64,000 nt of DNA from contig CAYPRX010000106.1 in assembly GCA_964413265.1 (NCBI GenBank), positions 2,048 to 66,047 on the forward strand, in the 5' to 3' direction. Under the pieces are notes generated by a model. The model saw only the letters and a list, made by a program, of their open reading frames with translations. It did not search any database and had not been told where the DNA came from. Positions 15,886 through 20,508 of the stretch are shown one piece after another. The DNA is from an uncultured Brevinematales bacterium. GTDB lineage: Bacteria; Spirochaetota; Brevinematia; Brevinematales; JAOACQ01. Within the stretch, counting starts at the first letter, position 1; every line of letters starts with the position of its first letter. The translations under genes were made by a program, and so were the position numbers.

Positions 15886-16488
15886 ATGTCAATTGATGTA
15901 GAGATATTTATTGATATACTCAGGAAGATCTTGAACGAATTCCACATACTTAACGAATATTTCTCTTCCCGATATAAATCATCAACATCGGATTACGATG
16001 TTGTCTTTTCAAACTGGACGAGGGATATGTATAAGCGGTACAAATCTTTTCCCTTATCTATGCACTGGGCGACGAGTTCCAGCCTGATCGCAAAAAACCA
16101 GATACTCTTTGATATCCGCCACATAGACAATTTTTTCTGCGAGGTTAAGTATAAATTTGACGAGAAATTCATAGCTTCTTTTCCGAATAATATAAAAAAA
16201 TATCTGGACAGTTTTTTTGAAATAAATAACATGTTTAGTTCTGCTTTTATTGCTTACGACAAAGTTGAATTCCCGAAAAATACTGATTTTGAAAAATATT
16301 TCCAAACATGGAAGAAAGGAATCAATCTGACTATACCAGGTACAGTTATTGATATCCGCTGGGCGAATAAGCTGGAGCCGGTTGTACTGAATCCTGTATA
16401 TTTTGAGATTATGATGCAGGATGATTGTATTTTTGAAGCCAGGTATTTATTTACCGAAGAGAGTTCATTGGAGGAGGGAAAGGAATGA
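15886..16488 (+). CDS. Hypothetical protein
   Basis: 200-aa ORF with ATGA overlap to the next gene; no motif recognised. Confidence 0.6.
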   Translation: MSIDVEIFIDILRKILNEFHILNEYFSSRYKSSTSDYDVVFSNWTRDMYKRYKSFPLSMHWATSSSLIAKNQILFDIRHIDNFFCEVKYKFDEKFIASFPNNIKKYLDSFFEINNMFSSAFIAYDKVEFPKNTDFEKYFQTWKKGINLTIPGTVIDIRWANKLEPVVLNPVYFEIMMQDDCIFEARYLFTEESSLEEGKE

Positions 16489-17030
16489 AATCAAGAGGCC
16501 TTCTTATGATCGAGCACAGGCTTATTGAAAAGATGATTCTTATAATTGACAAGGAGTGCGGGGAAATCCGAAAAAGCAATATCGTAGATCCTTTTTTTAT
16601 CGATACTGCCGTCGATTTCATAAGGACTTATGCCGACAGGACTCATCATGGCAAAGAGGAGGGTATTCTCTTTAAGGAGCTTGAGGCAAAAAAACTAAAA
16701 GGAGATGATGAGAAGTTAATGAAAGAGCTTATTGATGACCACAAAAGGGCTCGGAAAACAGTAGGTGAACTTGTTGAAGCTAAAACAAGATATGAGAAAG
16801 GCGACGGCAGGGCTCTTGATGAAATCCTCAGGCTTTTGACCTGGCTTGTAGAATTTTATCCTCACCATATACGTAAAGAGGATGCAGTATTTTTCCCTGA
16901 AGCAGAAAAATACTTTTCTGACAGCGAGCTGGAACTCCAGCTCAGGGAATACTACGAATTTGATATGAAAATGATACATGAAAAATACGGCAAAGTCGTA
17001 TCTGATTTACGGGCTAAATATAGTTTTTAG
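16485..17030 (+). CDS. Hemerythrin/HHE cation-binding domain protein
   Basis: EHRLI, HHGKEEGILF, DHKRAR, HHIRKEDAVFFP. Confidence 0.88.
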   Translation: MKSRGLLMIEHRLIEKMILIIDKECGEIRKSNIVDPFFIDTAVDFIRTYADRTHHGKEEGILFKELEAKKLKGDDEKLMKELIDDHKRARKTVGELVEAKTRYEKGDGRALDEILRLLTWLVEFYPHHIRKEDAVFFPEAEKYFSDSELELQLREYYEFDMKMIHEKYGKVVSDLRAKYSF

Positions 17031-17034
17031 AATT

Positions 17035-17297
17035 TAATTCCTCAGGCAGAGCGTAGTCCTGTCCTTGTCGAAATAAAAATTATAATAAAAATTAATTCCG
17101 AGATAAAGAGGAACGTGAAAATAAGGACCGCCTTCGGCGGAAATGAATTGATTAGCCGGATTGATCCATGCATCGTATACAAATGAACTGGCATGTTATG
17201 AGTGTTGTCAATGCTCCACAGTAATTTTTGTCTCCCCGAAATTCAGCGTGGTTGAAACAAAGGGGTAACAGTTATCTATTTTTGATTCCTGGTTAAA
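17035..17297 (-). pseudogene. 3' remnant of a decayed paralogue of the OMP at 17409-18524
   Basis: Minus-strand fragments FNQESKIDNCYPFV..KITV / SIDNTHNMP / FVYDAWINPANQFISAEGGPYFHVPLYLGINF align with FDYTEKISAYYPY..FIVG / SLDDEHNMAP / FFSDAWINPNNAYISVEGDPFYKCPFYAGFNV. There is a frameshift and a large internal deletion. Confidence 0.8.
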
Positions 17298-17371
17298 GCG
17301 AATATTCTCAAATTACGGGTGTAGCATACTAATTACAAGATCGTTTTGAATGTGCGATGAAAAAGAAGGGA

Positions 17372-17395
17372 AATTCCTTGCCCGAACAAGGAATT
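17372..17395 (-). terminator. Terminator-like hairpin after the OMP gene
   Basis: AATTCCTTG-loop-CAAGGAATT, followed on the minus strand by a pyrimidine/T-rich tract. Confidence 0.55.
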
Positions 17396-17408
17396 AAATT
17401 CTGTAATC

Positions 17409-18524
17409 TTAACTTTGCGTTACTAAATCAAATGAAAACTTCATCTGCGCATCGATCTCCTGGTCATAACGTATCATAAGATATGACCATGTTGCGGTCG
17501 TATAGGGAAGGTAAGTTCCGTTTACCAATCCCAGGATCAATGAAACGTCTTTCATTACCTCGATAGTGTAATGAACGTTAAATCCTGCATAGAAAGGACA
17601 CTTGTAAAACGGGTCCCCCTCGACTGAAATATAGGCGTTATTCGGGTTTATCCAGGCATCGGAGAAGAATAACTGGGGTGTAAAAGTGATTCCCCAAAGA
17701 GTGAAATTATATTCTCCGTAAATTCCTTGACCGAAAACATCTAAAGAGGCGACGTCCCTGTTAGGCGACCAATCGGAAGCCGTATAAAGGAGGCTGAATG
17801 TTTTGTTCCGCAGTCCGAAAGCGACGTTATCGTTCTCGGTGACATCGATAGCATAAATGAACTGATGCCCCCCGTTATGCCAATAATGGGCCGCGGCATA
17901 CAACAGTTCATAGTTATACGAGATACCTATGTCAAAGCGCTCCCTGTAATCGGCAGTACACTGGTACTGCCAGTTCCAATAAATATCCAGTTTTTGGTGA
18001 TCATCATTATACTGGAGTTGAGCGCCGTATTGATAAAAACCCATGGAGTTGACGGGGTAGATATTCGGAATAGGTCCGTTCCCGTTATGAAAATAGTATT
18101 CCTGGGTGTTGGTAAGCCAAACCCTGTTGCTGACAATCAGCTGATCGAGCGGATCTAGCATAAACGGGGCCATGTTGTGTTCGTCGTCAAGGCTTCCAAC
18201 GATAAAGCGCCAGCCGTTTAAGCTGAATTTCATCTGTATATAGGGATAATAAGCCGAGATTTTTTCAGTATAATCAAACGGAATCAGGAAACCGCATCCG
18301 GCTGAGAATTCGAAATTATCCGAAAATGTGAAACGAAAAGAAGGCTGAAAGAGGTCCTCGACATAGCGCAATGTTTCCATTGTGTATGCCTGATCCTGGT
18401 AATCGCCGTCTTCGTCATTGTAAGCATATCCCTGGTTGTAAATATCCAGCGATACCGCGGGGCTGGAAAAGGCTACTGATGCCAGGAATAATAGAGCTAA
18501 AACAAGCAGAAAAAATCTTCGCAT
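17409..18524 (-). CDS. Putative outer-membrane beta-barrel protein of unknown family
   Basis: GGAGG RBS, signal peptide MRRFFLLVLALLFLASVAFS, aromatic alternating strands. The track start at 18614 lies inside the IS inverted repeat, so 18524 is preferred. Confidence 0.75.
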   Translation of the reverse strand: MRRFFLLVLALLFLASVAFSSPAVSLDIYNQGYAYNDEDGDYQDQAYTMETLRYVEDLFQPSFRFTFSDNFEFSAGCGFLIPFDYTEKISAYYPYIQMKFSLNGWRFIVGSLDDEHNMAPFMLDPLDQLIVSNRVWLTNTQEYYFHNGNGPIPNIYPVNSMGFYQYGAQLQYNDDHQKLDIYWNWQYQCTADYRERFDIGISYNYELLYAAAHYWHNGGHQFIYAIDVTENDNVAFGLRNKTFSLLYTASDWSPNRDVASLDVFGQGIYGEYNFTLWGITFTPQLFFSDAWINPNNAYISVEGDPFYKCPFYAGFNVHYTIEVMKDVSLILGLVNGTYLPYTTATWSYLMIRYDQEIDAQMKFSFDLVTQS

Positions 18525-18663
18525 AAACCCTCCGATAAAAATATGTAATCTTTCAATTACGATTATTTTATTAAGACTTTTCTTTGACTTTATTATTAAA
18601 CATGGATTTCCCATTTAGCATTCAAGAACACTAAAAATATGGTTTACGACACTATGAAACAAC

Positions 18664-18692
18664 ATTTTATAGAACCCATTTTGCAATGTCAA
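18664..18692 (-). promoter_or_regulatory. Outward-facing sigma70 promoter inside the IS right end, pointing at the OMP gene
   Basis: Minus strand TTGACA-ttgcaaaatgggttcta(17)-TAAAAT, about 50 bp inside the IR. Confidence 0.7.
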
Positions 18693-18804
18693 AATAAACC
18701 CCTCTTTCTGAAACCTTAGATATGCTCATAAAAAGAAAATTCATTCATTTCTTTAAATTTTACAGCAGTTATCCCTATCTTCTTTATATCATTAAGGAGA
18801 ATCC

Positions 18805-19361
18805 TTATATCGAGCACAATATCCGCCTGAACCTTTCTATCCTTTCGAGTATTGCTTCAAAAATCTCTTTTGGAATAGCTACTTCAGCCATTTGAAATAT
18901 CGCGTACCGTGCAAGGCTGATAACCTTGATGCCACTCTATCTTCGCGGTCACTCGTCGTCCCCCGTTCAAGCCCGCTGCCTTATAGATGAGATCATGATA
19001 CATAATAAGAGGGGCGAATGACGTCCTTCCTACAGGGCGTTTTAATAGATGTGTGACGTTCAGCTCGAGAATGTCATTGGCCTTAATCCGGATGGCATAA
19101 AGAATATTCTCACGCGGAGTATCGCAGATTCGAGGTCCCCGTCCTGATTAAAATAGAATAATGGATTATAACATGTGCAGCCGAAATGTCCGTTGAGCCC
19201 CAAGCGAATGGCGTGTGTTTGCACCCTTACGGTTATCTGAAAGGCTTTGTTCTGCTATTTTACTCCAGCCCCAAAACATGATCAAGTTCGCGATAAGCAA
19301 GCAAGCCTGCGTCTGAAGTTATCGCCGATCAATGGAATTCAAGGCGGATGGAATTATCAAA
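18805..19361 (-). pseudogene. IS1380-family transposase, fragmented
   Basis: Minus-strand fragments FDNSIRLEFH*SAITSDAGLLAYRELD; NGHFGCTCYNPLFYFNQDGDLE; YAIRIKANDILE..LLKRPVGR..RRVTAKIEWHQG; KVISLARYAIFQMAEVAIP. Confidence 0.88.
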
Positions 19362-19374
19362 TGGGAAATCCGGG

Positions 19375-19499
19375 TTAAAATCAATTAAAAAACCGGAGCC
19401 TGCTTTAAAATTGTAAATATCGAAAGTCACTGGGGGAGATGTGAAGGATGCCGAAGCAGCGAAAAACAAAAACAGAAGCGGCAGGACGATCCTGTGCAT
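19375..19499 (-). pseudogene. 5' remnant of the decayed OMP paralogue
   Basis: GGAGGT RBS plus MHRIVLPLLFLFFAASASFTSPPVTFDIYN/FKAGSGFLIDF, matching MRRFFLL..FSSPAVSLDIYN/FSAGCGFLIPF. Confidence 0.8.
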
Positions 19500-19542
19500 A
19501 ATACCTCCGTAAATGTTTCACCCCTGGCCGTCCGGGACAATT

Positions 19543-20508
19543 TTAAAAAATAATCCCGATATCCAGTCCCACAGTGAACAAAGAGCTCTCCTGCGTATAA
19601 TTTATAGTGCCGGCATATCCCACAGGGGAGTAATTGTTGCCGCTGTTCGATGCATAATAGGTCTGGCTCTGGTTTCCAGTTGTTGATACATTTATATATT
19701 CGCCATCGAGATCTATAAAGATATTTTGAGTGATATTCTTCGAGATATCAAGACGTAATATAATTCCGATGCCTGAGCTTGAAGCTGTCAGCATTAAGCT
19801 TCTCAGAATGTGATTATCAGCATCCGAACAGAAGGATGGGGAAAGTCCGAACAGCGCTTCTATGCTAATAAAATCAGATGTATATTTTAATTTCATTGCA
19901 CCGTAAGGCATGTACTCGTTAAGTTGATAAGTAGAAACCTGACCCGGTACTACGGCGTTATAGCCCTGATAGCCTGAAGGTGAATACTGATCAAGGTTGC
20001 TTATATTGTAATAAAAATACCGGTATAAAAACCCTGGACCCAGAGAAAGAGAGAAACCATGGCTGGAATATAATTTATAGAAAAAAACAGTATCAATGGA
20101 AAATAATTCTAAAGTAGCATCTGATGTCGAGAAAATGTCAAGAGTATTGGGATTACCAGATAAGACCCACCAGTCGGAATCGTCAACTTTACCTGAATTA
20201 GGGGTAATGCTCTGCTTTGCGTTCAGCACAAGGTCGAAATTGTCCAGAAAGCGCCAATCGGTTTTAACCGTTAAGAGGAATAAATTGACTGGATAGTTCA
20301 GTTCACTGGTCGGAAAAGGCTGATTCCAGGTATTTCCGTTCGCATCTTTAACCAGGCCGCCTATCTCGTAGAGGGTGTAGCCGTACATCCATTCCCCGCC
20401 GGCTTCAATTTTAAATGAATCTGATACATCGCCGGACGATCCGTAGCCGGCTGCCAATGAAACGATTGAAAGCATAATTACTATAAACGGATAAAAAATC
20501 CATTTCAT
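19543..20508 (-). CDS. Omptin-family outer-membrane protease
   Basis: Signal peptide, SELNY, GKVDDSDW (cf. OmpT Asp pair), DADNHILR (cf. OmpT Asp/His dyad), C-terminal Phe. Confidence 0.75.
   Translation of the reverse strand: MKWIFYPFIVIMLSIVSLAAGYGSSGDVSDSFKIEAGGEWMYGYTLYEIGGLVKDANGNTWNQPFPTSELNYPVNLFLLTVKTDWRFLDNFDLVLNAKQSITPNSGKVDDSDWWVLSGNPNTLDIFSTSDATLELFSIDTVFFYKLYSSHGFSLSLGPGFLYRYFYYNISNLDQYSPSGYQGYNAVVPGQVSTYQLNEYMPYGAMKLKYTSDFISIEALFGLSPSFCSDADNHILRSLMLTASSSGIGIILRLDISKNITQNIFIDLDGEYINVSTTGNQSQTYYASNSGNNYSPVGYAGTINYTQESSLFTVGLDIGIIF

Follow-up and report, generated by a model that had tools for sequence, protein, structure and literature searches.

The window, a 64,000-nt stretch of the genome of an uncultured Brevinematales bacterium (GCA_964413265.1), contains an intact gene for a porin-like protein that is flanked by the two halves of a second, broken porin-like gene and adjoins the remains of an insertion sequence (IS). 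This raises the question of how the intact gene came to lie inside the broken one. A first-pass annotation, made from the sequence alone, had proposed that an ISEcp1-like element carried a divergent homologue into the resident gene, which was thereby both inactivated and replaced, possibly by a local hop within a tandem array or by IS-driven swapping of surface proteins.

Insertion of the unit and its 5-bp duplication

The insert occupies positions 17298–19374 (minus strand) and is 2,077 bp long, consisting of a 774-bp IS remnant and 1,303 bp past its right inverted repeat (IRR). It is bounded by TTAAA, found at 17293–17297 on its distal side and at 19375–19379 on the side of the left inverted repeat (IRL). 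The 5′ remnant of the resident gene (19375–19499, minus strand) retains the signal peptide and the first strand, has an internal in-frame deletion of ~130 nt, and translates from 19499 to 19375 as MHRIVLPLLFLFFAASASFTSPPVTFDIYNFKAGSGFLIDF before halting at the IS end. The reading resumes from 17297 as FNQESKIDNCYPF... in the 3′ remnant (17032–17297, minus strand), a pseudogene with two in-frame stops that has lost ~544 nt internally and ~125 nt from its 3′ end, which brings the decay of the resident gene to three deletions and two stops. This remnant shares 76%–77% nucleotide identity with the gene of a genome from the same genus, G001, in two blocks (17297→17190 and 17183→17042).

Removing the unit together with one TTAAA copy restores colinearity with the orthologues. 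The joined remnants then read GFLIDFNQESKIDN, which is identical to the single-copy G001 orthologue at the syntenic site, and the joined remnant FKAGSGFLIDFNQESKIDN (assembled by coordinates, with stops written as X) aligns colinearly with that orthologue (FKAGAGFLIDFNQESKIDN). In tblastn searches, the match of residues 27–41 of the 5′ remnant ends at L011:1755 and that of residues 1–27 of the 3′ remnant begins at L011:1753, and this one-codon overlap corresponds to the duplicated target. The orthologues in G002 (GATTTTAACCAG) and G003 (CCTTTTAACCAG) each have a single TTTAA at this site, located at the codon pair F–N. Since a single insertion accounts for the reading frame, for the register of the residues, and for the 5-nt duplication, the agreement is more than chance. 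The main elements of the first-pass annotation were found as it had described them: the 5′ part stopping at the IS end, the resumption from 17297, the shared TTTAA as a 5-bp duplication, and an insert of an IS1380 remnant plus 1,303 bp with an intact outer-membrane protein gene and terminator. Its colinear frame after deletion holds against the orthologues and not just against the intact gene, while a third TTAAA, the three deletions of the remnant, and an outward promoter-like site had been overlooked.

Both neighbours of the locus serve as synteny anchors. The convergent hemerythrin-domain gene (16485–17030, plus strand; PF01814, 71.9 bits) is 76% identical to the gene next to the porin-like orthologue of G001, and the upstream omptin-like β-barrel gene (19543–20508, minus strand; PF01278, 29.1 bits with a cut-off of 22.6) is 54% identical to the gene immediately upstream of that orthologue; in G001, one gene lies between the two. 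The GC profile gives the insert no distinctive composition and therefore argues neither way. Near the 3′ end of the locus, the nearly palindromic word AGAATTTAATTCCT occurs as a 14-nt exact inverted match at 17029–17042 and 17389–17402, which is probably a terminator-like sequence or a chance occurrence.

The IS remnant (18601–19374, minus strand) belongs to the IS1380 family. Its IRR (CATGGATTTCCCATTT, 18601–18616) and IRL (CCCGGATTTCCCATTT, reverse-complemented at 19359–19374) are identical at 14 of 16 positions, and inverted repeats (IRs) in this family commonly start with CC (ISfinder). Transposase fragments match positions 5–38, 160–188, 237–301, and 400–434 of profile PF13701, all under the 34.7-bit cut-off, and tblastn with a 455-aa transposase from G003 recovers aa 22–77, 181–207, 255–317, and 413–450 in five pieces at 54%–85% identity. 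These fragments are colinear on the minus strand, with the N-terminus toward 19374 and the C-terminus toward 18601, so that the IRL forms the outer edge of the unit and the passenger gene follows past the IRR in the same orientation. The transposase match, the terminal inverted repeats, and the 5-bp duplication (4–5 bp in the family) are those of an IS1380 element, and only the length of ~1.65 kb with one ORF is missing; as the window copy has 774 bp and no ORF, it is a decayed derivative. Among the 125 contigs of the assembly, none yielded a copy of this element whose transposase is intact. A scan of genome contigs for the 20-nt IR pattern yielded two stretches, neither of them a donor: one, in a Spirochaetota MAG, is what is left of a decayed IRR end, and the other, at the end of a Chryseobacterium contig, is a bare match of 21 nt without a transposase.

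Foreign origin of the intact gene

The intact passenger gene (17409–18524, minus strand) is an ORF for a secreted protein of 371 aa. GGAGGG precedes the ATG in its upstream region (18525–18595, minus strand), and a terminator-like hairpin with a 10-bp stem and a T-rich tail follows the gene (17372–17395, minus strand). The protein is conserved at each of the 44 columns that are invariant when 35 family sequences are aligned, and bears the family label PF28590 in the precomputed annotation; against the local Pfam and NCBIfam collections, it had no family match above the cut-off. Its AF2 model (pLDDT 81, pTM 0.80) has 16 strands and a low-confidence loop at residues 131–160, and the best PDB matches of this model in Foldseek are 16-strand general porins (E 1.7e-10, TM 0.4–0.5, 8%–13% identity). 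The passenger is predicted on this basis to be a general porin-like outer-membrane β-barrel with a signal peptide, 16 strands, and a long internal loop. An RNA library contained one 152-nt contig from the gene (17449–17600), which is too little to claim transcription.

In a tree of 19 rows comprising the nearest clades and an outgroup, the remnant falls inside the clade of same-genus orthologues (support 100/100), whereas the closest branch to the intact gene is its sister in G006, a genome of another genus (support 100/99). A quick 54-row tree, from which three duplicates were left out along with L007 and L009, whose extracted sequences were truncated, agrees with this result. Forcing the intact gene and the remnant into one clade, which was named after seeing a first tree, is rejected by the AU test (ΔlnL 69.8, p-AU 0.0027). 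The nearest homologue found is 50%–53% identical to the passenger, and a search of 5.8 billion proteins returned nothing nearer than 50% outside the window's own cluster of four near-identical members. With its sister in another genus and no more than 53% identity to any sequence found, the intact gene is a foreign homologue and not a tandem paralogue, and "xenologue" is thus preferable to the first-pass term "paralogue". No donor of the passenger was found, the metagenome scan having given the same strain only.

Every related genome with a match (n = 16) has one copy of the porin-like gene, and 10 of 11 same-family genomes have one. Combined with the synteny in G001 and the phylogeny, this leaves the local hop within a tandem array that had been considered at first without support. 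Among the loci of the 16 relatives (±1.5 kb), none contains a transposase match.

One-ended units and the proposed event

The closest full-length relatives of the IS are seven copies in G003, also of the same genus, with a length of ~1,648 bp, 75% nucleotide identity to the remnant pieces, and the inverted repeats CCGGGATTTCCCA and TCGGGATTTCCCA. Their 455-aa transposase (NF033539, 380 bits with a cut-off of 180; PF13701, 441 bits) is ~58% identical to the transposases of ISKpn23 and IS1247. These relatives make one-ended units. At locus L060, a 5,130-bp block with CTTAA/CTTAA flanks has one end exactly at the IRL and extends 3.48 kb beyond the IRR to the IR-like end CCGGAATTATCTA (9/13), and its source locus L059 holds the captured gene whole (1,111 aa vs. 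985 aa) as well as a 2,006-bp unit with TTTAA/TTTAA flanks. In all five G003 insertion events that we read, the flanking pentamers contain TTAA; the duplication is exact in four (TTAAA, TTAAG, TTTAA, CTTAA), and the fifth has TTAAT/TTAAA. Such targets make three TTAAA copies in the window unsurprising, and they suggest that the internal copy adjoining the IRR (18596–18600) is half of an earlier target duplication of the element, carried along from the donor site.

The putative surrogate right end of the unit (17298–17316) reads GCGAATATTCTCAAATTAC. It matches either true end at 7 of 16 positions, in line with the weak similarity noted in the first pass, the element's own IRR at 7 of 19, and related IRRs at no more than 10 of 19. 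With a matrix built from nine ends, it ranks in a single test among the top 1.3%–2.3% of 4.8 million genome positions, a suggestive percentile that falls between the values for the surrogate ends of the two units in G003 (0.16%–3.4%), and we infer that the transposase used this end. A promoter-like site (18664–18692, minus strand; TTGACA-17-TAAAAT) lies in the IRR end and faces the passenger. It agrees with the consensus at 11 of 12 positions and is also present in the full-length G003 element, with both hexamers invariant in all five aligned IRR ends. This putative outward promoter in the right end of the IS probably drives transcription of the passenger.

We consider it likely that an IS1380/ISEcp1-type unit brought the divergent homologue into the resident gene, disrupting it and replacing it at the same locus, as the first-pass annotation had proposed; the duplication, the alignment to orthologues, the synteny, the phylogeny, and the G003 units all support this reading. 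An IS1380-family element would have been located 76 bp upstream of a porin-like gene in another Brevinematales lineage, where its transposase would have paired the true IRL with a sequence that weakly resembles the right end and lies 111 bp past the stop codon of the passenger. Use of these two ends would render the IS, gene, ribosome-binding site, and terminator mobile as one 2,077-bp unit, by the route known as the ISEcp1 "transposition unit" or the ISPme1 "transposable module" (TMo). The unit would then have entered a TTAAA in the single-copy orthologue of the recipient, between the F and N codons, with duplication of 5 bp. The split resident gene would have decayed by its three deletions and two stops and the IS to 774 bp, with the incoming gene remaining intact, and the net result would be that, through a single event, a foreign homologue took the place of a chromosomal surface-protein gene at its locus.

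As the IS itself is flanked directly by TTAAA on both sides (18596–18600 and 19375–19379), an arrangement that a simple IS insertion would leave as well, the unit reading depends on the third copy and on the colinearity. An unlikely alternative is that the IS inserted alone at TTAAA and that foreign DNA with the same IS ahead of the passenger gene later recombined within it, the other side being closed by an illegitimate join at TTAAA microhomology. Such a two-step route would account for the TTAAA on either side of the IS and for a distal end that is weakly IR-like, and selection could favour the repair of a conserved gene that exists as one copy and had been knocked out. However, it requires two independent IS insertions beside homologous genes and a join that happens to recreate an exact 5-bp duplication; moreover, the distal end has an IR-like score that falls between those of the surrogate ends in the G003 units of the same clade, and this IS clade produces one-ended units. 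The gene might also once have lain between two IS copies, of which the distal one was deleted to its outer tip; composite transposons are common, and the surviving IS has large internal deletions. Yet just 74 bp separate the terminator from the unit end, without IS similarity beyond the weak 13–19-nt end match, and the surviving IS keeps both ends well (14/16), which makes this history very improbable.

Less credible again is a simple IS insertion between two old tandem paralogues, with the remnants as separate truncated genes and the TTAAA match arising by chance. The several deletions of the remnant show that truncation does happen at this locus, and TTAAA is common, with 13,588 occurrences over the two strands of 2.4 Mb, but the joined remnants keep frame and register exactly and match the orthologue at every residue across the junction, orthologues occur as one gene at the syntenic site and one copy per matched genome, and both remnants are of the same-genus type (60%–76% identity vs. 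~38% for the intact gene). Finally, the source is a 125-contig metagenome-type assembly, in which two strains with different alleles could have been joined, but we give a chimera next to no credence. Two independent metagenome contigs match the locus at 99.88% and 99.80% identity, each junction is spanned by contigs of three DNA runs on peat from three separate studies (e.g. 16784–17747, 18386–18983, and 19188–19951), with no alternative joint among them, and four further assemblies with at least 99% identity each contain at least one junction. The contigs of four runs yielded no joint across the insert that would represent an empty-site allele; as contigs drop rare variants, this does not show its absence. 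The locus is no assembly artefact.

The landing site counts against the preferred reading, delivery as one unit. The prior for landing in the passenger's own homologue is ~5e-4 (gene length/genome length), which is unexplained unless selection is invoked; with a single case, the landing may be due to chance. The setting of the unit at its donor site is likewise inferred, as is any advantage that would have selected for a homologue as the target. A tentative and rather doubtful idea is that promoter-equipped IS1380-type units with foreign porins act as one-step "swap cassettes" whose insertion in the resident porin gene is selected, for which phages or others using the porin as receptor may be the agents. 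If true, one event would delete the old surface protein and provide a working substitute, and the locus would exemplify a recurrent, mechanistically visible in situ xenologous displacement of surface proteins and not a one-in-2,000 accident. This raises the question of whether units of this type hit homologues of the genes they carry above chance, although a single case proves no rule.

Comparison with known systems

IS1380-family elements mobilise variable-length DNA on their 3′ side via a misrecognised downstream IR-like sequence and bear strong outward promoters (PMC9330008, PMC3281130), and a 5-bp direct repeat is listed for IS1247 (PMC3281130, Table 2). The window unit resembles ISEcp1 units as they are described there, which have an IS1380-family transposase, start at the IRL and include the IRR with DNA beyond it, and show a 5-bp AT-rich duplication around the whole unit (PMC9330008). 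Two further features of those units, a weak surrogate right end and an outward promoter near the IRR with a co-directional passenger downstream (PMC9330008), have putative counterparts in the window. In contrast to ISEcp1, which is known for mobilising blaCTX-M and blaCMY-2, the passenger here encodes a porin-like protein instead of resistance, the element sits, long dead, in an uncultured Brevinematales bacterium of peat, its full-length relatives have transposases ~58% identical to those of ISKpn23 and IS1247, and the target is the passenger's own homologue. Similarly, in the ISPme1 and IS1247a TMos of Paracoccus, a single IS1380-family copy moves variable-length 3′ segments, chromosomal or plasmid, driven by a strong outward promoter (PMC3281130, PMC9330008). 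Those TMos were reportedly trapped experimentally on plasmids, whereas the window event is read from its scars and replaced a homologous chromosomal gene. The nested units of G003 (2,006 bp, then 5,130 bp) resemble successive TMo growth.

One-ended capture by this family is best known for clinical antibiotic-resistance genes, and here it involves an uncultured peat spirochaete and a surface-protein passenger. Because the foreign gene landed inside the host orthologue, a single event yields replacement at the same locus. Among the titles found in the literature on in situ displacement, none concerned IS-mediated same-locus replacement, which is not proof that there is none. Xenologous gene displacement in situ, a concept reportedly due to Omelchenko, Koonin and colleagues in 2003, has a foreign homologue taking the locus of the resident gene with the neighbours staying in place, as in the window, where the intact gene is foreign by the tree and the AU test, the locus is the same by synteny, and the resident is pseudogenised. 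Classical cases have long been deduced from trees with the mechanism invisible, whereas the window keeps both gene halves, the vector IS, and the duplication, and offers one concrete way in which such a replacement can come about. The mechanism is already known; what is unusual here is that a single step would have exchanged a gene in place, leaving scars that can still be read.

A single insertion into a resident gene

On the minus strand, the locus runs from an omptin-like gene (20508 to 19543; PF01278, 29.1 bits, cut-off 22.6) through a 125-nt 5' remnant of a secreted-protein gene (19499 to 19375), a 774-bp element with inverted ends (19374 to 18601), a 76-bp leader between the right inverted repeat (IRR) and the passenger start, the intact passenger gene of 371 codons (18524 to 17409), and its terminator-like hairpin (17395 to 17372) to a 3' remnant of the same family as the 5' one, which begins at 17297 and contains two in-frame stops. 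A convergent hemerythrin gene on the plus strand has its stop codon at 17030. The coordinates and translations of the first-pass annotation all proved correct on re-reading the sequence, and the two outer TTAAA copies it had noted (17293-17297 and 19375-19379) are joined by a middle one (18596-18600) that it had omitted.

The gene is present in 17 of the 41 related genomes searched, the window's own genome included, with one match per genome except in the latter, where the intact gene and the 3' remnant give two. In G001, a genome of the same genus, the order of hemerythrin, one family gene, omptin-like gene, and gmhA is that of the window. Identity to the G001 protein is 60-76% for the remnants and about 38% for the intact gene. 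Colinearity was checked against true orthologues besides the intact passenger gene, with the remnants joined by coordinates in a script (one TTAAA deleted, X for stops). The joined remnant aligns colinearly with the G001 orthologue (junction FKAGSGFLIDFNQESKIDN vs. FKAGAGFLIDFNQESKIDN in G001), bearing out the proposal that removal of the insert and one TTAAA restores the frame. The claimed target duplication also holds, since the DNA of two further orthologues reads GATTTTAACCAG (G002) and CCTTTTAACCAG (G003) at the insertion site, with TTTAA once, compared with two copies separated by 2,077 bp in the window. Judged from these alignments, frame, register, and duplication all fit one insertion of 17298-19374. 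This insertion is old, as the remnant has since undergone deletions of about 130, 544, and 125 nt compared with the G001 gene and acquired two stops.

Several further features were observed around the locus. Contigs from two of three DNA runs contain a 2-nt CC insertion polymorphism at 17215 within the 3' remnant, consistent with a freely drifting pseudogene. An exact 14-nt inverted match (AGAATTTAATTCCT) lies just past the hemerythrin stop (17029-17042) and just past the passenger stop (17389-17402); this nearly palindromic word overlaps the terminator stem and has three matches at ≤1 mismatch, a number reached in 0 of 100 shuffles. The porin-like gene directly follows the omptin-like gene (19543-20508; L015 2683-4127) in G001 and G003, and G003 has a second partial tblastn match to the omptin-like gene just upstream.

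Two metagenome contigs match the window at 99.88% (2,528 nt, 16529-19056) and 99.80% (10,749 nt) identity. In three peat DNA runs from three studies, contigs span the junctions at the distal end (16784-17747 and 17246-17728), at IRR (18386-18983), and at the left inverted repeat (IRL; 19188-19951), and no alternative joint was seen among the contigs of these runs.

The passenger and its origin

The 371-aa passenger protein has a signal peptide and conserves all 44 columns that are invariant in an alignment of 35 family sequences, among them HYWHNGGH and EGDP. Structure prediction (pLDDT 81, pTM 0.80) gives a 16-strand barrel in which one long loop is of low confidence. The best structural match is the Rhodopseudomonas blastica porin, a 16-strand general porin (E 1.7e-10), followed by OmpM1, PorB, and OmpC/OmpF (overall TM 0.4-0.5, 8-13% identity). 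The local Pfam and NCBIfam copies assign the protein to no family; a large protein search labels its family PF28590, with some members named Brevinematales hypothetical proteins. The 35 aligned sequences, 28-51% identical to the window protein, share the invariant polar motifs RERFD, HYWHNGGH, TEN, and EGDP, a degree of invariance that would exceed the needs of a plain diffusion pore. Two assemblies annotate the passenger as 401 aa from an ATG that lies within the right end of the IS (18614) and a third as 371 aa; the 30-aa N-terminal extension (18525-18614) is probably an annotation artefact, as the signal peptide and a GGAGGG suit the start at 18524.

A careful 19-row tree places the remnant inside a 100/100 clade of same-genus orthologues and the intact gene as sister to that of G006, a genome of a different genus (100/99, long branch of 1.13), in agreement with the earlier claim that a divergent homologue was brought into the resident gene. 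Forcing the intact gene and the remnant together worsened the likelihood by 69.8 log units (p-AU 0.0027, with the group named only after viewing a first quick tree). As the related genomes and the large protein search yielded no homologue of the passenger closer than 50-53% identity, the donor is unsampled. The insert has no distinctive GC content.

An IS1380-family vector that captures adjacent DNA

The element ends CATGGATTTCCCATTT and CCCGGATTTCCCATTT are identical at 14 of 16 positions, and its interior contains PF13701 (IS1380-type DDE transposase) fragments, colinear on the minus strand and each below the family cut-off. Of 35 genomes searched across the order, five, the window's own included, have DNA relatives. 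G003 has seven nearly identical full-length copies of about 1,648 bp with ends TCGGGATTTCCCATTT and CCGGGATTTCCCAGAT; their 455-aa transposase scores 380 bits on the NCBIfam IS1380 equivalog (cut-off 180) and is about 58% identical to the plasmid-borne ISKpn23 and IS1247 transposases. The window remnant retains residues 22-77, 181-207, 255-317, and 413-450 of this transposase at 54-85% identity, which together with the PF13701 fragments confirms its assignment to IS1380. The transposase N-terminus is on the 19374 side; the 2,077-bp block is therefore bounded on this side by IRL, with the passenger outside IRR and oriented the same way.

Comparison of the G003 copies indicates that this IS clade can move adjacent DNA. 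Two of them (L059 and L060) have 5,135 bp in common, from IRL to an IR-like end 3.48 kb past IRR (CCGGAATTATCTA, 9/13 matches). In L060, CTTAA lies on either side of the block and the regulator gene it captured is truncated to 985 aa; L059 has this gene at its full 1,111 aa, which makes L059 the source locus. L059 also holds a 2,006-bp unit (IS plus 358 bp) with distal end AGGGTATTTATCA and TTTAA on both sides, and simple copies are flanked by TTAAA/TTAAA, TTAAG/TTAAG, and TTAAT/TTAAA. All five insertion events read in G003 used a TTAA-containing pentamer, and three TTAAA copies in the window are therefore unsurprising: the outer pair forms the new duplication, and the middle copy is plausibly one half of an earlier duplication of the element, brought from the donor site. 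An element of another kind, 1,628 bp long with perfect 14-bp ends (CCTGAATCCGTTAA) and flanked on each side by TAATAA (L062, 14592-16219), sits in DNA carried past the IRR of one G003 copy and was copied with that DNA in L061.

The putative surrogate end at 17298, GCGAATATTCTCAAATTAC, shares 7 of 16 positions with either true end, as weak as first described. Scored on a matrix derived from nine ends of this IS group, it ranks within the top 1.3-2.3% of 4.8 million positions in the genome, a percentile unchanged among positions following a TTAAA; two verified G003 surrogate ends reach 0.16-3.4%. The score lends slight weight to surrogate-end use, of the expected size.

The IRR end contains a promoter-like site facing the passenger (TTGACA-17-TAAAAT, 11/12; 18692 to 18664), found in the G003 element at the corresponding position, and both hexamers are invariant in an alignment of five IRR ends with about 60% identity over the rest of their sequence. 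Related IS1380 elements have left solo IRR-end remnants of about 100-165 bp on G000 contigs (L002 1496-1603, L003 1501-1608, L004 1501-1597, C105:2885, C21:54, C112:4004, and C112:2851), with 70-73% identity to the window IRR end. These remnants keep the promoter-like hexamers, and an AT-rich, TTAA-like pentamer precedes each one. In two of three examined, an outward gene starts 27-36 nt outside the tip (L002 1469 to 1056, L004 1633 to 3090); at the third, the neighbouring gene is convergent.

Alternative routes and known systems

Tandem paralogues are directly contradicted by the one match per related genome, the G001 synteny, and the colinear joined remnant, as is an assembly chimera by the contigs bridging the junctions. 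An identical map would result if the IS had inserted first, followed by recombination within the IS and an illegitimate join at TTAAA, but we regard this as improbable, as it requires two independent IS insertions beside homologous genes. Even less credible is a composite element that lost its second IS, because the 74 bp remaining past the terminator do not resemble the IS.

The most probable mechanism here is the one-ended capture already known from IS1380-family elements. What distinguishes this unit is its target, the conserved single-copy orthologue of its own cargo; the landing there replaced the resident gene in place with a foreign homologue, and all scars of the event are preserved. 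The neutral prior for such a landing is about gene length/genome length, roughly 5e-4, and selection for surface-protein swapping would be an attractive, if hypothetical, explanation. The layout, with IRL at the border and the passenger past IRR, is that of ISEcp1 transposition units, as far as PMC9330008 describes them, and of ISPme1 transposable modules in the descriptions of PMC9330008 and PMC3281130. Likewise, the outward promoters of ISEcp1 and ISPme1, in the account of PMC9330008, are paralleled by the promoter-like site of the window, here a consensus match.
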